Sequence record: MN101221.1
Direction: 5' to 3' (one strand)
Length of the DNA stretch: 64,000 nt
DNA from: Klebsiella phage KMI7
Of the stretch, positions 4,827-46,955 are shown in pieces (position 1 is the first letter of the stretch; the number at the start of each line of letters is the position of its first letter). The position numbers were made by a program, and so were the translations under genes. The notes beneath the pieces were generated by a model. That model was not told the DNA's origin, searched no databases, and saw nothing but the letters and a program-made list of their open reading frames with translations.

Positions 4827-5603
4827 TTACTCTATTGTGAAAGTGAATAAATCAGATTTGGTTTCAGGTTCAAACTCCATACAAACAACCTCGCATAGTG
4901 GTTTAACCCCTTTCCAATCCTCCAGGTAATACCCAGTATCTATACCGCATCCAGGATTCATAACAAGGCCAGTTTCATCAAGAAACTTTTTGCATTTACT
5001 TGATGTGGTGCTGTCATCTTGTCGGAAACAATGTGTTTTCGAATACCGGAAATTTGCAGACATTTGAGGGATTATGAAAGTTCCCTGACGCGCGATCTGT
5101 GATGCACGTTCGATTACTTTATACTCAAATTCTGCCCCTGTATACTTACCCTTAAAATCAGAGGTTTTGATTTTACCAAAAGGCGGATTACTGATCGCCA
5201 TATCAAACACCTGATTAAATTCAGTTGTTAAGGCGTCTCCATGCACCCAGGAGGCTTCTGGTACGATACGCTTACCTAACTCATAGTATGTGTGATTTAA
5301 CTCAACACAGACGATTTCACGCGGCGTATTGTACATCATGTAATGAACCATAGCGAAAGATAATCCACCGATACCAGCACACAGGTCAATAACGCTTCCA
5401 CCTGTGCAAGCATCGATTGTGAAATCGCGAGCAAGTCCAATAGGGGTAAAGAACGCCCCTAATTCAGAGTTGTTTGTAAACGCGCCTTCATGAAAGTTTT
5501 CGATAATGAACAACTTCTCTTCGTAAGTTAGCGCTTTGTCAGAGTGAACCAGATCCATTATCTGATTGTGTTTCTTGGTTTCCGCTTTCGTTAACTTTGC
5601 CAT
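4827..5603 (-). CDS. gamma-class N6-adenine (amino) methyltransferase-like protein
   Basis: Motif X FFTP, motif I VIDLCAGIGG and motif IV NPPF in gamma-class order. Start trimmed to MAKL (ATG 5601-5603, weak SD). The longer ORF-track N-terminal extension looks non-protein-like. Confidence 0.65.
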   Translation of the reverse strand: MAKLTKAETKKHNQIMDLVHSDKALTYEEKLFIIENFHEGAFTNNSELGAFFTPIGLARDFTIDACTGGSVIDLCAGIGGLSFAMVHYMMYNTPREIVCVELNHTYYELGKRIVPEASWVHGDALTTEFNQVFDMAISNPPFGKIKTSDFKGKYTGAEFEYKVIERASQIARQGTFIIPQMSANFRYSKTHCFRQDDSTTSSKCKKFLDETGLVMNPGCGIDTGYYLEDWKGVKPLCEVVCMEFEPETKSDLFTFTIE

Positions 5604-18729: not shown

Positions 18730-19665
18730 TCAAAAATCACTTAGTTTTTCGAACATACGGGAAAGTTTGTTATCCATGAAGTAACGTTCCATTTTGGCTT
18801 TACTTCCGGATTTTGGAGTATTATACGCTTCAATAATCGAATTTTCAATATCTTTTGGTATAAATTCGAAATCACGTAGTTCCTCGTTTTCTTTGTAACG
18901 TGCGGCCCATTCAGGGGTCATCAACGTTGTCGGGTCGTCTGCCTCTAGCCATGCCTCTAACTCAGAGGATTTTACCGCTGGGGCGCGTTCACCTTCAACT
19001 TTCGTCACAATATAATCATTTCTGATTTTAATGCAAGCGATACTATCTTTTTTATCGCCTTTGATATTTTTGTATCGCAGATCGTTACGTGGTGAACCGT
19101 ACTTAGGCGTTACCCATTTTTTCTGGGGAGGCGACCATTGACGAACACCGTTATATTTTTGTAGTTGTGTAAAGTCGCTATCAGCGGAAACCACTAATAC
19201 TCGTCTACCTTCACCAACAGCCTTTTTCGTAACAACAGCAATTATATCATCAGCTTCCGCGAATTCAACCTTTAATCCGAGATAAGGCATATTCTGACGG
19301 ATTTCTTCGAACACCGGATTCAGGAAGTTGTTCAGACGATCCCAATCCCATTCTGATTCTTCGTGTTCGATCTGACGACGTTTTTTGTAGTACCAGGCTT
19401 TTTGCCTACGCCAGTAATTTCTGTCATCGAAGGCAATCACGATTTCTGGATACTCGCCTTTAAATTTTACAACGTTAAACCTTAAAGTGTCAAGCACCAG
19501 ATGACGAATCATTTCGATCGTGATGGATGCTTGTTCCTTTGGTTTGAAGTTATTCATCAGTGTAGCGATGGAAATGTTAGAGATATCGATGACCATAGTA
19601 TCATCGGGTTCCCCTTCATCTTGCATCAGCTTGTTCAAGTTAAACATGCTTGCAAAGCTGCTCAT
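18730..19665 (-). CDS. rnh: RNase H (FEN-family 5'-3' exonuclease)
   Basis: 311 aa. Collinear with T4 RNase H (ADDIIAV, SSDSDFTQL, GDKKD, TRVEGER). Confidence 0.9.
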   Translation of the reverse strand: MSSFASMFNLNKLMQDEGEPDDTMVIDISNISIATLMNNFKPKEQASITIEMIRHLVLDTLRFNVVKFKGEYPEIVIAFDDRNYWRRQKAWYYKKRRQIEHEESEWDWDRLNNFLNPVFEEIRQNMPYLGLKVEFAEADDIIAVVTKKAVGEGRRVLVVSADSDFTQLQKYNGVRQWSPPQKKWVTPKYGSPRNDLRYKNIKGDKKDSIACIKIRNDYIVTKVEGERAPAVKSSELEAWLEADDPTTLMTPEWAARYKENEELRDFEFIPKDIENSIIEAYNTPKSGSKAKMERYFMDNKLSRMFEKLSDF

Positions 19666-19969
19666 ACATACCTCAATTTTTCAAAGAACGGGGTTATTGT
19701 AGTAACTTACGAAATGAAGTCAATACAAAAGATCATAAAATTTTTGATCAATAATACTTGATTTGATCAAATTTATGATCTATAATTTATTAATTAATAA
19801 TTATTTTACTACAATGATCATTGTAGGTCAAGTACTAAAATCAATAAATTTTATATAATTTAGATCTGATCTATAGATCATTAGATCTACTTTAACCTTA
19901 AATAATATAGAATGAAATTTGATTTTGTCTACAGTTATTATATAATATTCTTAACTTCAAAGAGGAAAT
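19666..19969. promoter_or_regulatory. AT-rich divergent intergenic region with clustered GATC sites and early promoters
   Basis: About 85% AT, yet about 9 GATC in 180 bp, including AGATCT palindromes. Lies between rnh (-) and gene 55 (+). Confidence 0.6.
19758..19786 (+). promoter_or_regulatory. sigma70-type promoter (TTGATT-17-TATAAT)
   Basis: -35 TTGATT, 17-nt spacer, -10 TATAAT. GATC abuts the -10 (TGATCTATAAT). Points toward gene 55. Confidence 0.5.
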
Positions 19970-20497
19970 ATGAATACTATGACTAAAGAAACAACCAATA
20001 TCTACGCAGACAATGAAAAATTATACCCTATCCTCTGTGCATGGAAAAAGCAAATCGCCGAAACAGGTGATCGCAAAATGCCTAATGAGTTGGGGGCTGC
20101 TATTATGGATATTGCAAACGGGCTATCACGTCGTTACAACTTCAACCGTTATTCCGAAGATTGGAAAATGGATATGATTGATGACGGAATTTCCGCTGCA
20201 ATCTCAGGACTGCATAACTTCGATGAAACTCGTTATACCAACGTTTACGGTTACATTAACAAAGCATGTTGGCAAGCATTCGTAACACGTATTCTGTACG
20301 AGAAAAAAGAGAACGCGAAGAAATATAAATTCTTCCTTGAGCACGTTTACGACTGCGAAGATTCAGATATGGTTAGTATTGCAGACGAAGGTTTCATTCA
20401 AGATCTACATGACAAACTATCTCAGTACGAGGCTTCCGCCACCAAAACCAAAGACAAGGAAGCGGAAGTATTCCCAACATTGGAAGATTTTCTATGA
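19970..20497 (+). CDS. 55: late sigma factor gp55
   Basis: 175 aa. Collinear with T4 gp55 (KGLHNFDETRYTN, ACW.AFV.RI). SD AGAGGAAA. Confidence 0.88.
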   Translation: MNTMTKETTNIYADNEKLYPILCAWKKQIAETGDRKMPNELGAAIMDIANGLSRRYNFNRYSEDWKMDMIDDGISAAISGLHNFDETRYTNVYGYINKACWQAFVTRILYEKKENAKKYKFFLEHVYDCEDSDMVSIADEGFIQDLHDKLSQYEASATKTKDKEAEVFPTLEDFL

Positions 20498-22385: not shown

Positions 22386-24060
22386 AACATTGACTTATCA
22401 AAATATCTTGTCGGTTGGTAACGTACCGATCGTCATTGATTTTGATTCAGCAAAGAAAACCCTCATTACGGGTAAAAACGGCGGTGGTAAATCCACCATG
22501 ATCGAAGCGCTTACATATGCTCTCTTTGGTAAGTCATTTCGCGATCTGAAAGTCGGACAACTGGTGAACAGTATCAACAAGAAAAAATGTCTGGTTGAAC
22601 TGTTGATCGAATACGGTAATGATGAATATAAAATCATCCGTGGACAAAAGCCGAAAGTATTTGAGATCTGGAAGAATGGCGAAAAACTGCCGGAAGATTC
22701 AGCCGCTGGTGATTATCAGTCACAGCTTGAATCAATGTTGAATATTAATCTGGTGGGCTTTAAACAGGTTATCGTTCTGGGTACTGCTGGTTATGTACCT
22801 TTCATGGAACTGAAAACACCAGATCGCCGTAAACTGGTTGAAGATTTGTTGTCTTTGTCTATCATCAGTGAAATGGACAAACTGAACAAATCATACATCC
22901 GTGGTGTTAACCGCGAACTGGATACGCTTTCAATGCAGATTGGACACGTACAACAGCAGATCGCAACACATCAAAAGTTCATTGACGAACAACGGGCAAA
23001 AGCAAATCAGAATACGGCGCGTTACCAGGATATCTACGATTCCCACGTAGAAACAGCAAAACAGATTAAAGCGCAATTAGTTGAACTTCAAACCCAGATC
23101 GCAGAATGTGTGATCAATGGTGAAGACCAAACAGCAAATATTCAAAAACTGCGTGATGGCTATACACGCCTCTCAATGAACGTAGAACAGTTGCAGCGTC
23201 TTGAGGTGATGTATCGCAAGGGTGGTGAATGTCCGGCCTGTAAACAGCCAATTAGCCCCACTCCTGAACGCATGGAAGAGATTGCCGAGAATATTAAAAA
23301 CGGTACTCAGAAACTTACGCTGATTAAGAACAAGCAAGATCAGCTACAGAAAATCATGGATGATTTACTAACACAACAACGTACACTAAATGGGCTGAAA
23401 TCCAAATACGAATCACTACGCGGTACACTTCAAAACGAAGTTGCAGCGGCTAAACGTGTTCGGGCTGTCATGGATAAAGCACAGGAAGACGTGGTGATCG
23501 ACGAATCCCCAGTTGAAAAACTCCGTGAAGATGAAAAGGAACTTGATTCTAAACGTTCTGGATTTGTCAAGGAAAAATATTTCAGAGGTATTGTTACGGA
23601 TCTGCTGAAAGATTCCGGCGTTAAAGCGAGCATCGTTAAACGTTATATTCCTTACTTCAATAAACAGATTGCGTACTATCTGGATCTGTTGGGTGCTGAT
23701 TATCAGTTCACTCTGGATGATGAATTTAACGAATCGATTAAATCGCTGGGTCGTAATGATTTTAGTTACGCATCGTTCAGTCAAGGAGAAAGAGCACGTA
23801 TCAACCTTGCTTTACTTTTCACCTGGCGCGATGTAACCAGTAAAATTTCTGGTGTTGATTTATCCCTTCTGATCCTGGATGAAGTGTACGATGGTGCAAT
23901 TGATCGTGATGGTAGTTTTGCTGTAAAAGCACTATTGGATGGGATAAATGGTAACGTAATTGTTATCAGTCATCAGGATTTGGATCCGGAAGATTTCGAC
24001 CGACATATTGTTATGTCAAAAGTCGGTCGATTCTCTAAAATGGAAGTTAAGAAGTCTTAA
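22369..24060 (+). CDS. 46: recombination ATPase gp46 (Rad50/SbcC-like)
   Basis: About 563 aa. Walker A GKNGGGKST, CPAC zinc hook, signature FSQGE, Walker B LILDE. Collinear with T4 gp46. ATG at 22369 after an AAAGGA SD. Confidence 0.9.
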   Translation: MKLKFKTLTYQNILSVGNVPIVIDFDSAKKTLITGKNGGGKSTMIEALTYALFGKSFRDLKVGQLVNSINKKKCLVELLIEYGNDEYKIIRGQKPKVFEIWKNGEKLPEDSAAGDYQSQLESMLNINLVGFKQVIVLGTAGYVPFMELKTPDRRKLVEDLLSLSIISEMDKLNKSYIRGVNRELDTLSMQIGHVQQQIATHQKFIDEQRAKANQNTARYQDIYDSHVETAKQIKAQLVELQTQIAECVINGEDQTANIQKLRDGYTRLSMNVEQLQRLEVMYRKGGECPACKQPISPTPERMEEIAENIKNGTQKLTLIKNKQDQLQKIMDDLLTQQRTLNGLKSKYESLRGTLQNEVAAAKRVRAVMDKAQEDVVIDESPVEKLREDEKELDSKRSGFVKEKYFRGIVTDLLKDSGVKASIVKRYIPYFNKQIAYYLDLLGADYQFTLDDEFNESIKSLGRNDFSYASFSQGERARINLALLFTWRDVTSKISGVDLSLLILDEVYDGAIDRDGSFAVKALLDGINGNVIVISHQDLDPEDFDRHIVMSKVGRFSKMEVKKS

Positions 24061-24772
24061 ACTTGCAGTTATCAAAATGCCAGCGATTCATATTGCTGGC
24101 ATCACCAGATTTATTGCAATATGGACAAATCAACTGCTTCCTTTTTGCTGGCGTCTTTCTATTTGGGTTATTTCTGCAATACGGTATATGTGAACGCAGA
24201 TAATGTAATGACGATTCTGTTCCGCAATATGGACAATTGCCCCGTTCTTTAGGTACGTTTCCGTTCTTATGGGAACACGGGATACCCTCGAACTTATGTT
24301 TCAACCCTTCATTACCTGGTTTCAGTTTGCAGTTGTCGAAGTGCCAACGAGTCATATTTCCAATTATACCTGATTTTCCGCAATGAGGACACACAACCCT
24401 TTCTTGTTGCTTTTTGGCTTTACTCATTCGCTGTCTGGTTTCTTCGGTGAACTCTCTATTCCTATGTGCTTCTGACGCTTTTTTCTTTAACCATTCATAG
24501 CGGCGGTTAGCTGTTCTTTCCTTTGATCTATTGGAACCAACTGTTAACATATGCGCTGCAAAAACAAGTTTGTTATTTCCTGGGTACATCTTGACTAATA
24601 ACAGATGCGCAATATAATGTTGACGCGCTGTAAGATTAACCAAATTATCATCAGAATCTGTTCCACCTATGCACTTAGGTATGATATGGTGTGATTCTGT
24701 ATATCCATCATACTGCGTTTGTTTAGCATGTTCTATGATAGAGTTATAAATTTTGTTATAGTTCATAAACAT
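24047..24772 (-). CDS. HNH homing endonuclease with C-terminal zinc-finger repeats
   Basis: HNH core SHHIIPKCIGGTDSDDNLVNLTARQHYIAH. Three CPHCGK/CPYCG...WHFDNCK repeats. Convergent with gene 46 and overlaps it by 14 nt. Confidence 0.8.
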   Translation of the reverse strand: MFMNYNKIYNSIIEHAKQTQYDGYTESHHIIPKCIGGTDSDDNLVNLTARQHYIAHLLLVKMYPGNNKLVFAAHMLTVGSNRSKERTANRRYEWLKKKASEAHRNREFTEETRQRMSKAKKQQERVVCPHCGKSGIIGNMTRWHFDNCKLKPGNEGLKHKFEGIPCSHKNGNVPKERGNCPYCGTESSLHYLRSHIPYCRNNPNRKTPAKRKQLICPYCNKSGDASNMNRWHFDNCKFKTS

Positions 24773-24822
24773 ATCTCTTGTTTGATGGGCCGTTAGATAC
24801 CCCTATTTAAGAGGATGAAATT

Positions 24823-25017
24823 ATGTTATTAGAAAAATCTTTTGAATTAGAAACCGCTCTGGAAATAGAGCGGTTTTATCTCCACAACAATTTTCTTGAA
24901 GAAAAACATATAGTTACTATGAAAGATGTTGAGGAAGCATTCAAAAATAATCCTATAGAGTTGACGCGAATCAAGAACAACAAAAGTTCTGTTTGGTTCC
25001 TCGAAAAAATCTATTGA
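24823..25017 (+). CDS. hypothetical protein (64 aa)
   Basis: Small plus-strand ORF. Followed by hairpin/T-run terminator 25041-25075. Confidence 0.4.
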   Translation: MLLEKSFELETALEIERFYLHNNFLEEKHIVTMKDVEEAFKNNPIELTRIKNNKSSVWFLEKIY

Positions 25018-25040
25018 CCGAAATCCATAAATACAGTAAA

Positions 25041-25075
25041 GTAGCCCATGTAACGAAACGTGGGCTTTGTTTTTA
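25041..25075 (+). terminator. intrinsic terminator (hairpin plus T-run)
   Basis: agcccatgtaacgaaacgtgggct stem-loop followed by ttgtttttatt. Confidence 0.5.
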
Positions 25076-25090
25076 TTTGAGGAACAATAA

Positions 25091-25327
25091 ATGATCACCG
25101 AATCCAAAATGACTTATCAGGAAGCACTGAAAGTTTTGGGCGCAACTGGTAGCGAAACCAGCGCCGAAATGTCCAGACTCTTCAAACGTGCATCCTTACG
25201 CAATCACCCCGACCGTGGTGGTAGCAATGAATTAATGCAGAAAATTAACCAGGCTTACGACGTCGTTACAAAAACTGGGCCTAGTGGCGCACGTTCTGAG
25301 ACTGCTGGTGACGTTCGCGCACGTTAG
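25091..25327 (+). CDS. J-domain protein (DnaJ-like, HPD motif); Rki-like N-terminal module
   Basis: 78 aa. Helices I-III plus the HPDRGG loop give a canonical J-domain. SD GAGGAA. The frame stops right after helix III. Confidence 0.7.
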   Translation: MITESKMTYQEALKVLGATGSETSAEMSRLFKRASLRNHPDRGGSNELMQKINQAYDVVTKTGPSGARSETAGDVRAR

Positions 25328-25775
25328 CGGAAACGATATCTTTGTTGAAGTTGGTACACTGAAAGTTCGTTTCTATCGTCACGTGTTCATGCGCAAAGGT
25401 GCTTATGTGTTTAGCGCGGTGTATGATCCTGCTGTATCTAAGTATCGTCCGGCTGCACAACTTCGCGGAACCATGTTCGAAGACGAAGACGGCGCTTGCC
25501 TGGATATGATCGTTGATACGTTCAAAGAGTTGCAGAAACTGAAACCGAGTGTTCAAGGCGTTGTGAACGCGATCGATAAGATGAACGCAGAGTTTGCAGC
25601 GGGACATCGTTCAGCATCTTTTGTTAAACGTGTAGCTGCTCAGGAAGCCGCGCCGAAGCCAGAAGAGAAGCCAAAACGCACTGTTAATCGTATCGGTAAA
25701 GAGGCACTGGAAGAACGATATTCCAACATCACGGGGATCTTTTCCCCGTCCTTGACGTTGTTAATGATATCCTGA
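25284..25775 (+). other. +1-frame ORF continuing downstream of the J-domain gene (possible frameshifted C-terminal domain)
   Basis: 163-codon frame that is open from 25236 and overlaps the J-domain ORF's 3' end. Begins only at a GTG. J-domain plus this ORF would total about 228 aa. Confidence 0.35.
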
Positions 25776-25906
25776 TCGATGAGTTCAATCAGGTCTCTTT
25801 TCTCCTTGATCAAGGTAGAAATTTCTTCTTGCAGCGGGGCTATCTGTGCATGAAGTTCTTTGATCCGTTGATCAATTACGGTCACTTCGAACGCTAAGTT
25901 TCTCAT
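25640..25906 (-). CDS. hypothetical coiled-coil protein (about 88 aa)
   Basis: Start at MRNLAF with a GGGGA SD. ATGA-coupled to the upstream gene. Its 3' third is antisense to the plus ORF 25284..25775, so the two conflict. Confidence 0.4.
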   Translation of the reverse strand: MRNLAFEVTVIDQRIKELHAQIAPLQEEISTLIKEKRDLIELIDQDIINNVKDGEKIPVMLEYRSSSASLPIRLTVRFGFSSGFGAAS

Positions 25907-26049
25907 TGTACCCATTCCCCGTTTTTATCAATGTACATGATCCAATCAGCAACCGCCCAATGGGAAGTATTGCCTTTCGGAGTAGCTACGATGTAGGAAC
26001 CAGCTTTAAACAGTACGCGTTTAGTTTCGTTCAGGGTCAGGTCGCTCAT
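25903..26049 (-). CDS. small protein (48 aa)
   Basis: Start MSDLTL. Has the same 19-nt RBS-start sequence GAGGAATACATTATGAGCG as the upstream gene. Confidence 0.4.
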   Translation of the reverse strand: MSDLTLNETKRVLFKAGSYIVATPKGNTSHWAVADWIMYIDKNGEWVQ

Positions 26050-26059
26050 AATGTATTCC

Positions 26060-26455
26060 TCATTTAACCAAAGTGAATCGTGATTCATAAGCATCGTTCG
26101 GGCGCTCATACACGGTATCCGAACTTGTAATGACAGTGTACACGGTTTCTTTCACAAGATCCATGATTTTCTGTGATTCTCCCCAGACATTGATACTAAA
26201 ATAAATCCCATTTTTAGGAATAGGATTGTATTCCATATCATAATACATATCCATGAGTTCACAAATGAACAGGCGGCGCTGTTCGTTATCATATGTGAAA
26301 TAAATGTTAAAACAATCGAGAGATTTACTCAAAGTAATCTCTTTGATAACGATGTTGTCTTGTTTGCTAAAATGATCGCGGATTGCTTGCACACAACGCA
26401 ACAGGTTAGGGTAATCATATTTTTGTGAAACAATGACTTGATGTGAAACGCTCAT
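26060..26455 (-). CDS. hypothetical protein (131 aa)
   Basis: ORF with a GAGGAA SD. First gene after the bidirectional hairpin 26492-26522. Confidence 0.5.
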   Translation of the reverse strand: MSVSHQVIVSQKYDYPNLLRCVQAIRDHFSKQDNIVIKEITLSKSLDCFNIYFTYDNEQRRLFICELMDMYYDMEYNPIPKNGIYFSINVWGESQKIMDLVKETVYTVITSSDTVYERPNDAYESRFTLVK

Positions 26456-26491
26456 AATGTATTCCTCTCAATTAGATACACTCATAATAAA

Positions 26492-26522
26492 AAAGCCCCC
26501 GACCGAAGTCAAGGGCTTTTTG
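26492..26522. terminator. bidirectional intrinsic terminator
   Basis: aaaaagcccccgaccgaagtcaagggcttttt: an interrupted GC stem with a CGAA loop, flanked by an A-run and a T-run. Confidence 0.55.
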
Positions 26523-31160: not shown

Positions 31161-31172
31161 AATTTTACCTAC

Positions 31173-31196
31173 AAAAAAGCCCCTTTCGGGGCTAGT
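31173..31196. terminator. bidirectional terminator aaaaaagcccctttcggggct
   Basis: An A-run precedes the hairpin and a T-rich tract follows. Confidence 0.5.
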
Positions 31197-31199
31197 TAA

Positions 31200-31463
31200 T
31201 TAAAGTTCACAGCAACGGCACACACCGTATTTTGTAAATGGAGCATCACCGCTAACATAGGCCCAGAAATCACATGCTTCTTCGGCAGTATCGAAGATTG
31301 CAGCATCATAGAACCCGTGGGCTTCGTTACCGTTCTCATCGATGAAAACCGGAGTCCAGATATTAGGATTGAAGCAATCGTCAACAACAACCCAACCTTC
31401 TTTAGCTTTCATTGCTTCTTTGTTGGCTTCGATGTGAGCTAAGATTTCGTTCATGATGTCCAT
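31200..31463 (-). CDS. hypothetical protein (87 aa), C-terminal CRCC
   Basis: ORF. Confidence 0.45.
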   Translation of the reverse strand: MDIMNEILAHIEANKEAMKAKEGWVVVDDCFNPNIWTPVFIDENGNEAHGFYDAAIFDTAEEACDFWAYVSGDAPFTKYGVCRCCEL

Positions 31464-31532
31464 TTTTCTCTCCTAAAGTGCGTTTCGTTTCGACAGGGCT
31501 ATAGTCTCATAACCCCGTATCTACGTCAACAC

Positions 31533-44415: not shown

Positions 44416-45111
44416 TTAAAATTTAAAAGTATCGAGCACTTTGCTCTTTAGTTGTTTCAAAGTACCTTCGTTAGTGATGATACTATCTCCCGGTTGAGGT
44501 GTCAAACCTTTTTCCGTGGAATGTTCATCAACAATTCCGGTATCCTTTACAATAAACACAAACTTAGCACCCAAGCGTTTCAGGTATTTATATTCGTGTT
44601 CCTGACGACAGTCAGTTACCAGAAGATGATTGTATTCATCACCAGCATATTTATTGACGAATCTTTCCAGTGTGTAACGAACCCAAACCGTGTTATCATA
44701 CTTGCATACGATATCAGTTCCAAACACTTGCATCAAGCGTCTGATACTCCAGGGGGTATCGTTACGCATAATCAGGTTATGAATATCATCCGGACTGTAA
44801 ACAATATTGTATCCGCGTTCTTTGAGGATTTCAAGCCCGATTCTGAAAATATTTAGGACATCTTCATTAGAAATCACAAGAGGTTTCTCTCGATCGCCTT
44901 CATAAAAAATAGCATCCGGATCAGAATATTTTCCTTCAACCAGATTGCGAATGTATGGTTTATCGTAACCATATCGCTGCATTGCTACTCTTAGCGTTCT
45001 TTTGATACCAAATGCCAGTGCTTCACACTGAACATCATTGTACGCCTCTTGAATAAATTTAGCAACCGTATCTTTACCAGTTCGCTTTTTTCCACTAATC
45101 ACATAAATCAT
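44416..45111 (-). CDS. 1: deoxynucleoside monophosphate kinase (gp1)
   Basis: 231 aa. P-loop SGKKRTGKDT. WSIRRLMQVFGTD and DCRQEHE match my recall of T4 gp1. Confidence 0.88.
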   Translation of the reverse strand: MIYVISGKKRTGKDTVAKFIQEAYNDVQCEALAFGIKRTLRVAMQRYGYDKPYIRNLVEGKYSDPDAIFYEGDREKPLVISNEDVLNIFRIGLEILKERGYNIVYSPDDIHNLIMRNDTPWSIRRLMQVFGTDIVCKYDNTVWVRYTLERFVNKYAGDEYNHLLVTDCRQEHEYKYLKRLGAKFVFIVKDTGIVDEHSTEKGLTPQPGDSIITNEGTLKQLKSKVLDTFKF

Positions 45112-45641
45112 TAGCTCATTCTCTTTTGAGAAGTGACTACTTTTCCGTCAATTTCAACTTCCATATGAAGGAAGCCAAAAGTTGCCATACACGTAACCGC
45201 TTCATCACTATCGTTAGTATAACCCAATTCAACCTCACCCAAGTTTGTTGGGAAGGCACCATAAAATCTAAATGTGGCGATCGTTTTCATCTGGGAGTTA
45301 TCCAGGATATGCACAGCGAATGATTGCTTAGGATCATCCCACGCAACAGAGTTAAACTCGTTATAATCGTTTGTGCTCAACATCCATATGTAAATCCCAA
45401 GATACGATCTCATTTCCTCATCGACTACAAAGCGGATCATCAAAGGATCAAACTCAAAAGCCGAACCAGGTACTTTACCTCGAACCATCATATTTGCAGG
45501 AATATCAACTGCTGGGAGGTTCATTGATGGTAGTGTAACCCCTTGAACTTGTAAAGTCAAACCTTTCATGTAACTGTTATCAGGAATATCAACCCGAAAG
45601 TTTGTAGGTGAGATTTGGTTTAAAATCATTTCTGTAGACAT
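45111..45641 (-). CDS. tail completion/sheath stabiliser gp3-like (positional)
   Basis: 176 aa, the same length as T4 gp3. Adjacent to gene 1 as in T4. Beta-rich tail-tube-like composition. Confidence 0.4.
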   Translation of the reverse strand: MSTEMILNQISPTNFRVDIPDNSYMKGLTLQVQGVTLPSMNLPAVDIPANMMVRGKVPGSAFEFDPLMIRFVVDEEMRSYLGIYIWMLSTNDYNEFNSVAWDDPKQSFAVHILDNSQMKTIATFRFYGAFPTNLGEVELGYTNDSDEAVTCMATFGFLHMEVEIDGKVVTSQKRMS

Positions 45642-45720
45642 AGGATCTCCTTTCCTCTATTTAGCGGGGAACGGGATCAAAGCGGCCTGACGGGGTAATA
45701 TAAAAATTTGAAGAAAATGC

Positions 45721-45749
45721 TTGACCTTTTAAAATCTTTGATCTATAAT
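45721..45749 (+). promoter_or_regulatory. sigma70 consensus-like promoter TTGACC-17-TATAAT
   Basis: Near-consensus hexamers and spacer. GATC abuts the -10. Confidence 0.55.
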
Positions 45750-45836
45750 AATTTTTAATTAAAATTTTATCAAAAAGATCTAACAAGATCAAGTAAAATT
45801 TAATAAATAATTTATCAAAAATTTTTAGATCTGATC

Positions 45837-45865
45837 TTGAATTCATAAATTTTATGATCTATAAT
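45837..45865 (+). promoter_or_regulatory. sigma70-type promoter TTGAAT-17-TATAAT
   Basis: Second tandem promoter. GATCTATAAT again. Confidence 0.5.
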
Positions 45866-46010
45866 ATATTAATATTTTATTTTATCATAAATTTTTATGA
45901 AGATCAATACTTAGATCTAATAAATTTTATGCTTTTTCTGAAAACTTTTCCTTTACCCCGTCACTAAATACTGGTACTATGTTCCCATATTGGAAATCAG
46001 GAAAAACAAA

Positions 46011-46955
46011 ATGACTCACTTGAAAAAATTCAAAGAATTTCTGACCGAAGGTAAAACCCTCGCTCGTACCGTAGCACGTGGTCAACGCGCTAAAACTTCC
46101 GATAAACATTCAATCGGTTTTCTTCACTTCAAACATGGTTCTGATTTCGAAGTTTTAGCACCGGATTCTCACGATCTGGCATACTTCGGTAAAAACATTG
46201 TACGTTTGAAAGGTATGACTACTGGTAAAGTTCAAGCGGCTTATGTCGATTGGGCTAAAGGTACTGTTTCTTTCTACAGTGGTAATCCGGATAATGATAT
46301 GGATTTCGATAAACCAGAAAAATTCAAAGCTGCTACTCTGTATGAAGAGGCGGAAGAAAATCTGGATCTGTATAACCAGTTAGCAGAAGATTTCGAAATC
46401 GAGATCCCTATGGATGAAGCTCTGGTGAAAGGTAAAGTTTACAAACTCCCAAGCAACGATATGCGTCTTCTGTACACTGGGCGTTCTAAAACTAAAGCAA
46501 GCGGTGAATATGCAGTGTTTACCGTAGTCGATGCTTCCGGTAAACCTCGCCTGGTATCTGGTAAAAAATTCACCCAGGAATATAAAGGCGATATGGTTTC
46601 TAAACTGGTTCTGGCTGAATCGGAGGAAATCAATGAAGCTGTTGTGGGGAAGTCCTCACCTAATGTTAAAAAATTGGTTGCTGCACTAAAGAAAAAGTTT
46701 GATGTTTACGTGGAAGTAGAAAAAAAGAAATTTTACAACGAAAAGACTGAATCATTCGAATATGAAACCGTCGTTAGTGTTGAATACTACGAAAAAGGCG
46801 AAGATTCAGAACCGATCGGCGTATTCCGTACATCAGACGACCAGAAATTTACATTTGGTCATATCTACAGTAAAGCGGGTTCTGATCATGGTAAAGCGTT
46901 TGATGTAGCACATATTGTTTCCGGAATTAAAACCGGACATTACGATCCTAAGTAA
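46011..46955 (+). CDS. lysine-rich protein with internal-protein-like N-terminal capsid-targeting sequence (candidate injected internal protein)
   Basis: Start MTHLKKFKEFLTE|G with an AGGAAA SD. Resembles the T4 IP CTS (MKxYxEFIAE, LxE cleavage). Strong GGT/CGT/CTG/GCT codon bias. Has its own promoters and terminator. Confidence 0.5.
   Translation: MTHLKKFKEFLTEGKTLARTVARGQRAKTSDKHSIGFLHFKHGSDFEVLAPDSHDLAYFGKNIVRLKGMTTGKVQAAYVDWAKGTVSFYSGNPDNDMDFDKPEKFKAATLYEEAEENLDLYNQLAEDFEIEIPMDEALVKGKVYKLPSNDMRLLYTGRSKTKASGEYAVFTVVDASGKPRLVSGKKFTQEYKGDMVSKLVLAESEEINEAVVGKSSPNVKKLVAALKKKFDVYVEVEKKKFYNEKTESFEYETVVSVEYYEKGEDSEPIGVFRTSDDQKFTFGHIYSKAGSDHGKAFDVAHIVSGIKTGHYDPK

Follow-up and report, generated by a model that had tools for sequence, protein, structure and literature searches.

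GATC-packed, AT-rich hubs at three loci of Slopekvirus genomes: candidate early-promoter clusters and possible replication origins

Previous work on bacteriophage T4 showed that the origins oriF and oriG each consist of a promoter and an A+T-rich unwinding element, that oriE uses an early promoter, that transcription diverges at oriE, oriF and oriG, and that the T4 origins have no motif in common (PMC3016281). In the T4 genome record, oriG is located 2.1 kb inside gene 34 and 2.2 kb from rnh, and oriE within gene 5 at a distance of 3.4 kb from gene 3, with the primers of both being antisense to the adjacent gene; oriF is located at the 5' end of uvsY. To our knowledge, T4 is essentially the only T4-like phage with mapped origins, and we know of no clear role of T4 Dam past anti-restriction. 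Dam-sensitive promoters with GATC in or beside their core elements are known, such as IS10 pIN and the dnaA promoter, and P1 pac, a phage site with clusters of the hexamer TGATC(A/G), is cleaved in a manner dependent on Dam methylation. T4-type terminases package DNA by the headful without a pac site, and T4-like phages replicate with a replisome of their own, without recourse to DnaA. The PeSL cassettes of phages RB49 and phi1 combine an early promoter with a stem-loop (PMC2839356).

In this study, we analysed a 64-kb stretch of Slopekvirus DNA (the window), which is KP27/KP15-like with about 99% identity. The original prediction had pointed to two divergent control regions in it, one next to rnh/55 (r1) and one at 45642-46010 (r2), as candidate Dam-sensitive promoters or a replication origin. 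These regions are two of three GATC-packed hubs per genome in the Slopekvirus genomes examined. Literature on GATC, methylation, origins and transcriptomes of Slopekvirus yielded nothing relevant, and no published description of the hubs was found.

GATC clustering in AT-rich intergenic DNA

In the KP27 genome, long AT-rich segments with GATC clusters number exactly three and lie at 31.2, 100.5 and 135.1 kb; five further AT-rich segments are all short, with 0-1 GATC each. The hubs are 300-370 bp in size and contain 6-10 GATC. The third hub (r3), outside the window, lies between gene 24 and uvsY and abuts the start of uvsY. In the window, r1 and r2 (Table 1) are the sole long AT-rich segments and the two 300-bp stretches densest in GATC, and they hold the two least stable 100-bp duplex stretches (45798-45897 in r2, z 5.7, and 19762-19861 in r1, z 5.0; the next has a z of 3.2). 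Both regions are located at transcription divergence points and coincide with both minima of cumulative GC skew, and leftward gene blocks of 31 kb and 36 kb and a rightward block of 25 kb are headed by hubs.

Table 1 Coordinates of hub features in the 64-kb window (promoters are predicted from consensus matches)
Feature	Position	Strand	Description
Hub r1	19666-19969		intergenic, rnh (18730-19665, -) / gene 55 (19970-20497, +); 9 GATC; GC 0.214
GATC sites of r1	19731, 19746, 19765, 19777, 19816, 19863, 19868, 19876, 19884		spacings 15, 19, 12, 39, 47, 5, 8, 8 bp
Proximal rnh promoter candidate	19696-19723	-	TTGACT-16-TACAAT, then edge motif AACCCCGT (reads ACGGGG on the + strand at 19688)
Putative hub-type promoter	19758-19786	+	TTGATT-17-TATAAT; TGATCTATAAT at 19776-19786; also annotated in KP27
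Candidate leftward promoter	19803-19831	-	TTGACC-17-TAAAAT; annotated in KP27
Densest GATC block	19862-19888		AGATCT-GATCTATAGATC-ATT-AGATCT; four GATC in 27 bp
Proximal gene 55 promoter candidate	19919-19946	+	TTGATT-16-TATAAT; without GATC
Hub r2	45642-46010		intergenic, gp3 (45111-45641, -) / orf206-like gene (46011-46955, +); 10 GATC
GATC sites of r2	45644, 45675, 45740, 45777, 45787, 45828, 45833, 45856, 45902, 45914		core spacings 37, 10, 41, 5, 23, 46, 12 bp
CTAAATA late-promoter-like motif	45658-45664	-	about 17 nt upstream of gp3 start
Inverted-repeat left arm	45688-45729		42 nt, 74% complementary; flanks r2 core
Putative hub-type promoter Pa	45721-45749	+	TTGACC-17-TATAAT; TGATCTATAAT at 45739-45749
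Weaker leftward promoter candidate	45764-45792	-	TTGATC-17-TAAAAT, 9/12 matches; tentative
Putative hub-type promoter Pb	45837-45865	+	TTGAAT-17-TATAAT; TGATCTATAAT at 45855-45865
Weaker leftward promoter candidate	45879-45907	-	TTGATC-17-TAAAAT; faces Pb
Inverted-repeat right arm	45922-45963		pairs with 45688-45729
CTAAATA late-promoter-like motif	45964-45970	+	upstream of orf206

The count of about nine GATC per region that had been predicted was borne out by 9 sites in r1 and 10 in r2, eight of the latter inside the AT-rich core 45700-45930. Base composition predicts 0.54 and 0.80 sites, respectively, and dinucleotide-preserving shuffles predict 1.10 and 1.25 (maxima 6 and 5); none of 2000 such shuffles reached the observed count. 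The predicted enrichment of more than 20-fold holds for the cores (28-fold in 19700-19900 and 38-fold in 45700-45930) but not for the entire regions (17-fold and 12-fold), and an AT content of about 85% was an overstatement, the values being 78.6% and 75% over the entire regions and 80% and 86% in the cores. AGATCT palindromes and tandem copies occur as described, with two AGATCT in r1, three in r2 and one copy of GATCTGATC in each. In the hub cores, GATC was the sole enriched G/C-containing 4-mer (22 observed versus 0.65 expected, 34-fold), and about 45% of all G+C in the three cores falls within GATC. The clusters are local and do not reflect a genome-wide bias, as the number of GATC in the whole KP27 genome is 0.99 of the trinucleotide-Markov expectation. 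Apart from copies of phage KP15 itself, 2751 AT-rich 300-bp windows from 2.1 Mb of unrelated viral contigs held 5 GATC at most; this background was made up of loci reused from IMG/VR, in which exact 14-mer scans with TTATGATCTATAAT and TTTAGATCTGATCT gave chance matches only.

The hub GATC sites have no consensus beyond W-GATC-W, which would suit a protein that recognises GATC alone, such as Dam, SeqA or MutH, better than an operator protein. The enriched signal is thus the bare tetranucleotide, in line with the Dam-type recognition proposed originally. TTGATC was considered as the cause of the enrichment and rejected, for it accounts for 8 of the 22 sites, about chance level (contexts read by eye).

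It might be argued that the GATC enrichment is a functionless by-product of the duplication of a promoter module, together with local tandem and palindromic duplications (GATCTGATC, GATCTATAGATC). Promoter-sized modules are indeed common to the hubs, some GATC sites resemble local duplications, a sister genus manages without GATC (see below), and conservation within the genus says little about selection because its members are 96-99% identical. However, the 22 sites occur in many contexts, with just five in the repeated -10 motif, and such a concentration of the G+C of three separate cores in one tetranucleotide, together with the lack of comparable clusters in unrelated AT-rich DNA, speaks against this. 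Moreover, between r1 of the window and that of KP27 one GATC is gained and another lost with the count remaining at 9, although this is a single event. Taking these results together, we consider a by-product unlikely.

Even less probable is that the arrays have some other use, either as a methylation-gated packaging or cleavage signal like P1 pac or as a binding array for a phage or host protein. P1 pac provides the precedent, and several deposited records or contigs start or stop inside r2 or r3. Nevertheless, the breakpoints vary (window positions 45823, 45849 and 45891) and one 35-kb contig runs from r2 to r3, so that these record ends fit assembly breaks at shared repeats, and headful packaging of the T4 type needs no pac site. 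TGATCA occurs three times in r1 but in neither r2 nor r3, TGATCG is absent from r1 and r2, and the hubs do not have the arrangement of P1 pac, in which two groups of TGATC(A/G) hexamers flank the cleavage point. The missing consensus around GATC likewise argues against a specific operator protein.

Promoters and unstable DNA in the hubs

Given that the hub promoters match the sigma-70 consensus at 10-11 of 12 positions (consensus matching only), we infer that each hub comprises several near-consensus host sigma-70 promoters in both directions. Promoter-like matches come up often in AT-rich DNA, and searches of r1 and r2 gave 8 of them versus 3.9 expected and 12 versus 2.5 expected. Common to the hubs is a repeated module of the sigma-70 type, cTTGAwTTCAwAAATTwwwTGATCTATAAT, of which TGATCTATAAT forms part; TGATCTATAAT occurs five times in KP27, always within a hub, and begins at 19776, 45739 and 45855 in the window. 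The three -35/17/-10 promoters named in the original prediction are all present as described, and r1 and r2 do share near-consensus promoters in which GATC abuts the -10. An extended -10 in TGATCTATAAT was ruled out, since its TG is at -17/-16 and not at -15/-14. Five of the 22 hub GATC are located at -16 to -13 of the repeated -10 motif and the rest are scattered; none is found in the 19 other annotated sigma-70-like promoters of KP27, which lie outside the hubs.

In r1, the promoter at 19758-19786 is one copy of the repeated hub promoter (consensus read by eye) and carries GATC at -16 to -13 within TGATCTATAAT and a second GATC immediately 3' of its -35. It faces the leftward candidate at 19803-19831, with predicted starts at about 19793 and 19796, some 3 bp apart. 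The spacer of this leftward element, which is invariant in six Slopekvirus sequences, is taken up by a perfect 18-bp palindrome, CTACAATGATCATTGTAG (19809-19826), with GATC at its centre. Another perfect palindrome, the 14-bp TGATCTATAGATCA (19867-19880), is part of the densest GATC block. The leader RNA of gene 55 showed no significant structure (z -1.2).

In r2, two GATC lie immediately 5' of the Pb -35. The weaker candidate at 45764-45792 faces Pa and has GATC in its -35 and AGATCT in its spacer; it is called tentatively because such matches are common in AT-rich DNA. In r2, the predicted face-to-face starts fall at about 45756/45757 and 45872. Pb and the candidate at 45879-45907 form an imperfect palindrome of about 110 bp (about 45817-45928) with folding z scores of -4.2 as RNA and -3.2 as DNA, and the inverted-repeat arms end in GACGGGGTAA / TTACCCCGTC. 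Folding of r3 as single-strand DNA was not significant (z -1.35), and Rfam 15 gave no match in r1 or r2 and one chance-level snoRNA match inside gene 55. Pa and Pb face the orf206-like gene, which has its own CTAAATA late-promoter-like motif; in KP27, at least 11 late structural genes have CTAAATA or TATAAATA upstream. Examination of the orf206-like protein as an initiator or DNA binder led to a dead end: it has no Pfam or NCBIfam match, matches PHROG 7322 (unknown function), and its AlphaFold models (pLDDT 44 from one sequence, 64 when 12 homologues were added) have no Foldseek match in PDB with E <0.02. The hub promoter copies of r3 face the gene 24 terminator, and a leftward non-coding RNA is predicted from them. 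Some hub promoters, those of r3 and Pa and Pb of r2, therefore point where no early gene follows.

It is possible that the hubs are promoter clusters only, driving long divergent early units, with methylation by phage and host Dam tuning their strength or timing, for instance by way of m6A at -15/-14 beside the -10 or of SeqA bound to hemimethylated hubs, and with no role in replication initiation. The near-consensus -35/17/-10 matches are annotated in KP27 as well, the hubs head the long gene blocks described above, GATC takes up -16 to -13 in every one of the five repeated -10 motifs, the genus encodes a Dam orthologue (see below), and Dam-sensitive promoters are of a known kind. AT-richness, divergent promoters and skew minima are also equally expected at plain early promoters, because gene orientation switches there. 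On the other hand, so small a share of the hub GATC at the -10 motif, and GATC-free promoters elsewhere in the genome, do not fit well with this explanation, which also does not account for there being exactly three hubs, for a different three-copy cassette of the sister genus at the same loci, or for strong promoters that face a terminator (r3) or a gene with a late promoter (r2). We regard it as somewhat unlikely, yet nearly as likely as a combination of promoter and origin.

Dam methylation and a possible role in replication

A dam gene is present, as the original prediction had proposed to check: the KP27 protein KP27_267 is an orthologue of T4 Dam (E 1e-84 to PDB 1YFJ; TIGR00571 at 147.6 bits versus a cut-off of 114.85), although the Slopekvirus dam gene is outside the window. 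Dam has been reported in all five original members of the genus (PMC5219037). Two records, CPRSB and CPRSA, are error-rich and nanopore-like, with GATC miscalled mostly as AATC or GATT, and we rejected their divergence as real variation for this reason. In CPRSB, 40 of 176 GATC are changed versus 5.4% of all 4-mers. Miscalled sites include five of nine in r1 (CPRSB), among them all four of the densest block, and six of eight in the r2 core (CPRSA). Native nanopore sequencing of E. coli and K. pneumoniae has been reported to give G-to-A miscalls at Dam-methylated GATC (bioRxiv 10.64898/2026.01.14.699587). The miscalls in these nanopore-like records suggest that the hub GATC are methylated, and virion DNA seems to carry modified GATC.

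Adjacent GATC are 31 bp or less apart in six of eight intervals of r1 and four of seven of r2 (Table 1). At least two GATC within about three helical turns, the spacing used as the criterion for SeqA, are accordingly found in r1 and r2 but not in r3, where all spacings are 39 bp or more. As these exceed 31 bp, cooperative binding of the SeqA type is doubtful at r3.

The original idea of a Dam/SeqA-type origin is only partly sustained. It gains from the existence of three hubs, the coincidence of one with the uvsY/oriF site and the sister cassette, and loses from the lack of DnaA boxes and the poverty of T4 origins in GATC. T4 oriF and oriG have at most one GATC within 200 bp, which means that clustered GATC do not typify T4 origins, and the argument that T4 ori(34)/oriG maps beside rnh is weak, as T4 oriG falls within gene 34 and this phage has that gene away from rnh. 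An origin of the oriC or P1 oriR type, opened by host DnaA and with GATC in 13-mer-like unwinding elements, is hardly credible, even if GATC clusters in AT-rich DNA recall it and several GATCT starts resemble the oriC 13-mer GATCTnTTnTTTT (read by eye). With one mismatch allowed, no DnaA box TTWTNCACA was found in any hub core, the single 1-mismatch match, TTTTTCAAA, being at the rnh edge; for want of such boxes we take this type of origin to be excluded. IHF sites, iterons and tandem repeats were not found in the hubs either, and AGATCT, considered as an 'ATP-DnaA box' and rejected, makes up 6 of the 22 WGATCW forms versus about 5.5 expected. That T4-like phages do without DnaA points the same way.

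Features of a T4-like origin are nevertheless present, with promoter matches directly upstream of the least stable DNA of both regions, and our favoured, tentative reading is that the hubs are early-promoter clusters doubling as T4-type origins of promoter plus unwinding element, gated by Dam and SeqA. As immediate-early promoter clusters and replication initiation zones, the hubs would work by a promoter firing into the A+T-rich unwinding element, with the transcript staying as an R-loop that primes DNA synthesis, as at T4 oriE, oriF and oriG. The dense GATC would couple this activity to adenine methylation: virion DNA may arrive fully methylated by the phage T4-type Dam, so that the hub melts more easily and the promoters open; passage of a fork would leave the hub hemimethylated; host SeqA could then bind the close GATC pairs of r1 and r2 and transiently silence or sequester the hub, until re-methylation by Dam ended the silencing. 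Promoter activity, R-loop and origin function, SeqA binding and dependence on methylation state are all putative in this scheme.

In Pseudotevenvirus (RB43, RB16, Miller, GAP161 and others), we found a three-copy cassette of about 150 nt whose sequence is unrelated to the hubs and which is found at the three hub positions, rnh|55, gp3|hyp and gp24|uvsY; no published description of it was found. Sequence comparison thus indicates that position and copy number are conserved across both genera while the sequence is replaced. Neither the T4 origins nor this cassette has GATC clusters, and hub function would therefore not need GATC. A broader proposal, which we consider doubtful, is that RB43-type phages (Slopekvirus and Pseudotevenvirus) have three fixed origins (rnh|55, gp3|orf206 and gp24|uvsY) with genus-specific cassettes, of which the Slopekvirus version is licensed by Dam and shut off by SeqA. 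The Slopekvirus cassette would have been rebuilt to be GATC-dense, such that full methylation of the infecting chromosome licenses origin firing and early transcription, and hemimethylation with SeqA after the first fork acts as the shut-off, an oriC-like, once-only epigenetic switch in a virulent phage equipped with its own Dam.

Three compact, sequence-defined hubs are concrete targets for origin mapping and for dam/seqA genetics, in a phage family widely used in Klebsiella phage therapy, and the different cassette of the sister genus at the same loci is a natural swap experiment. If gated by methylation, the hubs would give the Dam of the phage a part in timing early transcription or replication. 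Being repeat-like, extremely AT-rich and apparently heavily methylated, the hubs also break short-read assemblies and gather nanopore miscalls, with consequences for the quality of Slopekvirus genome records.

Comparison with known systems

The hubs resemble PeSL in being repeated intergenic regulatory modules of non-T-even T4-like phages but lack its GC-rich stem-loop. Elsewhere in the genome there are PeSL-like promoter-in-terminator units, one of them on the - strand at about 26470-26515. As at IS10 pIN and P1 cre, GATC is fixed directly upstream of the -10 in five hub copies and lies in or beside the -35-like hexamers of other hub promoters; however, those systems have 1-2 GATC, whereas the hubs have 6-10, most of them outside core promoter elements.

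With oriC, the dnaA promoter and P1 oriR, the hubs have in common a significant clustering of GATC in an AT-rich control region, the availability of a cognate Dam and, in r1 and r2, many GATC pairs within SeqA range. They differ from these systems in lacking DnaA boxes or iterons, in being present in three copies per genome, in belonging to a virulent T4-like phage with a Dam of its own and in the absence of closely spaced GATC pairs from r3.

The Pseudotevenvirus cassette likewise has an AT-rich core with inverted arms, comparable to the 42-nt inverted arms of hub r2. Unlike in the hubs, its arms are GC-rich (GAGCGAAGCGAA / TTCGCTTCGCTC), its core is near-identical between copies and species, and it has only 1-3 GATC and no GATC clusters.

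Like the T4 origins, the hubs have one or more predicted promoters directed into the locally least stable DNA, and several of them are spread round a T4-like genome at points of divergence and skew shift. Some hub promoters are non-coding or antisense, as are the oriG and oriE primers, and r3 sits at the 5' end of uvsY as oriF does, the only exact positional match between hubs and T4 origins. In contrast to oriF and oriG, which use MotA-dependent middle promoters, the hub promoters look like host-type sigma-70 promoters, as proposed for oriE. The T4 origins have no common motif and at most one GATC nearby, whereas the hubs, as putative origins, have a recurring promoter module in common and are dense in GATC.

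Three GATC-dense hubs in Slopekvirus genomes

The window belongs to the genus Slopekvirus (Straboviridae; Klebsiella phages KP27, KP15, Matisse and relatives), with about 99% identity by megablast. Window 1-25704 aligns with KP27 11465-36917 and window 25699-49361 with KP27 81608-104000, so that at 25699-25704 (context 24008-26449) KP27 36917 is joined straight to 81608. About 44.7 kb is missing there, including frd, td, nrdAB, DNA ligase and the baseplate hub genes 27, 28, 29, 48, 54, 51, 26 and 25. Not one of 114 Slopekvirus records reads across this junction, and its microhomology amounts to a few bases only. The contig is probably chimeric or misassembled at this point, or else carries a non-viable deletion.

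No long AT-rich segments other than the intergenic regions r1 and r2 occur in the window; these two also contain its GATC-densest 300-bp windows and have its lowest duplex stability (z of 5.0 and 5.7; the runner-up stretch has 3.2). Base composition predicts 0.54 GATC in r1 and 0.80 in r2; dinucleotide-preserving shuffles gave means of 1.10 and 1.25 (maxima 6 and 5). Not one shuffle in 2000 came up to the observed count of either region. As an empirical control, 2751 AT-rich 300-bp windows were taken from 2.1 Mb of unrelated viral contigs, and none held more than five GATC, copies of KP15 itself excepted. Set beside this empirical control, a reading of the GATC enrichment as a non-functional by-product seems improbable. 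The original prediction gave both regions about 85% AT and more than 20-fold enrichment. The latter holds in the cores (window 19700-19900 and 45700-45930; 28-38-fold), which are 80-86% AT, but over the whole regions AT content is 75-79% and enrichment 12-17-fold. The AGATCT and GATCTGATC forms, the shared motif TGATCTATAAT and the three promoter matches that it named in r1 and r2 are all present, and GATC is not dense genome-wide (0.99 of the trinucleotide-Markov expectation in KP27).

A scan of the KP27 reference genome, joined from five stretches, revealed three long AT-rich segments with clustered GATC and no more, namely the counterparts of r1 and r2 and a third hub, r3; five other AT-rich segments, all of them short, hold 0-1 GATC each. 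As a BLAST query, r1 matched 114 Slopekvirus records only, with three hit positions in most of them. Deposited records or 35-kb contigs of phiKp_13, phiKp_23 and phiKp_9 (LC768475.1, LC768494.1 and LC768471.1) begin or end inside r2, and one contig runs from r2 to r3; because the breakpoints vary, these ends look like assembly breaks at shared AT-rich repeats, not physical ends. The motif ACGGGG(W)(W)A (outgoing strand CCCCGT) stands at four of the six outer hub edges, these being 4 of 40 genomic copies, within about 1 kb.

In the hub cores, no tetranucleotide is enriched nearly as strongly as GATC (22 observed, 0.65 expected), whose copies take up about 45% of the G and C present. Sites are flanked by A or T without any wider consensus, and neither AGATCT and TGATCA nor, in our own reading of the site contexts, TTGATC exceeds the random-W-flank expectation among hub sites, which makes bare GATC the unit under selection. 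This points to a GATC reader (Dam, SeqA, MutH) and away from an operator protein. Some other GATC-reading function, for example a pac-like site, is distinctly improbable.

Coordinates of the hubs and associated features
Feature	Coordinates	Strand	Context
r1	window 19666-19969		divergent intergenic, rnh (-) / gene 55 (+); 9 GATC
r2	window 45642-46010		intergenic, gp3 (-) / KP27_206-like gene (+), product function unassigned; 10 GATC, 8 within AT-rich core
KP27 hub 1	KP27 31170-31485		counterpart of r1
KP27 hub 2	KP27 100471-100771		counterpart of r2
KP27 hub r3	KP27 134939-135288 (L009:30939-31288)		gene 24 / uvsY, directly upstream of uvsY; 6 GATC; outside window
r1 rightward hub promoter	window 19758-19786	+	faces leftward candidate
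r1 leftward promoter candidate	window 19831 to 19803	-	faces 19758-19786 promoter
Perfect 18-bp palindrome CTACAATGATCATTGTAG	window 19809-19826		GATC-centred; occupies spacer of r1 leftward candidate
r1 palindromic block	window 19862-19888		four GATC in 27 bp
r2 rightward hub promoters	window 45721-45749 and 45837-45865	+	each opposed by weaker leftward candidate
CTAAATA late-promoter-like motif of gp3	window 45658-45664	-	outside r2 core
CTAAATA late-promoter-like motif of orf206	window 45964-45970	+	outside r2 core
ACGGGG(W)(W)A edge motif	window 19688-19693, 45690-45695, 45956-45961; KP27 134955		outer hub edges
Pseudotevenvirus cassette	RB43 L005:867-1187; Citrobacter phage Miller L263:1327-1597, L264:3316-3587		

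Promoter architecture of the hubs

All five KP27 copies of TGATCTATAAT lie within hubs, where the motif spans -17 to -7 in a recurring promoter module with, by our own reading, the consensus cTTGAwTTCAwAAATTwwwTGATCTATAAT. Outside the hubs, 19 annotated sigma-70-like promoters of KP27 are without GATC and lie in DNA of ordinary composition, and the GATC load thus belongs to the hubs, not to the phage promoters generally.

Besides its facing pair, r1 holds proximal promoter candidates for rnh and for gene 55, and its 18-bp palindrome, unchanged across six Slopekvirus sequences, looks operator-like. The second facing pair of r2 makes up an imperfect palindrome some 110 bp long (fold z of -4.2 as RNA and -3.2 as DNA), and 42-nt inverted arms flank the r2 core. 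CTAAATA or TATAAATA, which in KP27 precedes many late structural genes by 25-45 nt, is probably the late-promoter consensus of this phage group. Since orf206 has its own CTAAATA motif, the strong rightward r2 promoters aim at a late-looking gene. The orf206-like protein (window 46011-46955) has 314 aa, against 262 aa in KP27, because its C-terminus is replaced (window 46639-46952 is unaligned). Its homologues are confined to this phage group and match PHROG 7322 (unknown function); a search for a fold match found none. In r3, two minus-strand copies of TGATCTATAAT are directed towards the gene 24 terminator and away from uvsY, and a short leftward non-coding RNA could arise from them. At window ~26470-26515 (minus strand), a promoter lies inside a terminator-like stem-loop (AAAAAGCCCTTGACTTCGGTCGGGGGCTTTTTTATTATG), a unit resembling the PeSL cassettes of RB49/phi1, and the KP27 annotation includes several similar units.

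Dam and signs of methylation

The dam gene that the original prediction proposed to look for is present in the KP27 reference genome, in a part outside the window: KP27_267 is a clear T4 Dam orthologue (E 1e-84 to T4 Dam structures; TIGR00571 above cut-off). Dam and Dcm homologues were reported in all five genus members then known, GATC clusters being unmentioned (PMC5219037). The KP27_035 orthologue (window 4827-5603, minus strand) has weak matches, just over the cut-offs, to the small N6-adenine or MTS methyltransferase domains PF05175 and PF02384, and could be a second adenine methyltransferase beside Dam and the Dcm-type C5 enzyme encoded elsewhere in the genome.

The records CPRSB (OM971649.1) and CPRSA (OM971648.1) are error-rich, with fragmented genes and homopolymer indels (the DNA polymerase, for example, is split into seven ORFs). 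Relative to KP27, 40 of 176 GATC sites are altered in CPRSB (23%, against 5.4% of all 4-mers), mostly reading AATC, GATT or -ATC; altered hub sites include five of nine in r1 in CPRSB and six of eight in the r2 core in CPRSA. G-to-A miscalling at GATC is a reported methylation-associated error of native nanopore reads from E. coli and K. pneumoniae (bioRxiv 10.64898/2026.01.14.699587). Judged by their error pattern, both records look like unpolished nanopore data from Dam-methylated DNA, and we take the miscalls as an indirect sign of GATC methylation in virion DNA, hub sites included. The window itself is free of this bias, so that its differences from KP27 in r1 (one GATC gained and one lost, total still nine) are real.

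A possible origin-type role and comparison with known systems

T4 oriF and oriG consist of a promoter and an A+T-rich unwinding element and form R-loops, oriE depends on an early promoter, all three sit at transcriptional divergence and skew-shift points, and T4 origins share no common motif (PMC3016281). In the T4 record, oriF maps to the uvsY 5' end. oriG, whose primer is antisense, lies 2.1 kb into gene 34 and 2.2 kb away from rnh, and oriE, likewise antisense, lies in gene 5, 3.4 kb from gene 3. As oriG and oriE thus lie kilobases from rnh and gene 3, only r3 is a close positional match, and the original argument for an origin at r1 from rnh/oriG synteny is weak, gene 34 not being beside rnh in this phage. 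Within 200 bp, T4 oriF and oriG show no more than one GATC. Cumulative GC skew in KP27 has two minima, at r1 and r2, which do not separate the readings because gene orientation switches there too. No DnaA boxes, IHF sites, iterons, tandem repeats or Rfam matches were found in the hubs, and an oriC-type origin is extremely unlikely.

The rnh/55 synteny is kept in Pseudotevenvirus (RB43, PF-CE2, Cronuts, Miller) and Pectobacterium phage POP12, with only 1-3 GATC in the intergenic region. Unexpectedly, Pseudotevenvirus carries at the same loci (rnh/55, gp3/hyp and gp24/uvsY) a cassette of about 150 nt unrelated in sequence to the hubs, in which GC-rich inverted arms GAGCGAAGCGAA...TTCGCTTCGCTC enclose an AT-rich core TTTATATTTTATATATAGAGAAAAATGTAGTTTTTGGTATGGTTTTTAACC nearly identical across copies and species; most of 64 records have it in three places. 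The same loci and copy number with replaced sequence argue for a conserved positional function, which would not itself need GATC; the GATC looks like an overlay specific to Slopekvirus.

The hubs are very likely early promoter clusters. That they are promoter hubs only, tuned by Dam, is less likely than not, though nearly as probable as the combined model below. Their number of exactly three, the sister-genus cassette and the strong promoters without an early gene are better explained if the hubs also serve as T4-type initiation zones. The hubs would then be early promoter clusters and replication initiation zones at once, and the GATC load would couple them to methylation state, the simplest account of that load given the phage Dam, the probable methylation and the SeqA-compatible spacing in r1 and r2. 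We regard this combined model, every functional step of which we infer, as the likeliest single reading, though still tentative and less likely than not.

Full-text literature searches found no published description of the Slopekvirus GATC clusters or the Pseudotevenvirus cassette. Control-region GATC clusters are a known kind, as are origins built of a promoter and an unwinding element; what is new is their combination in a virulent T4-like phage.
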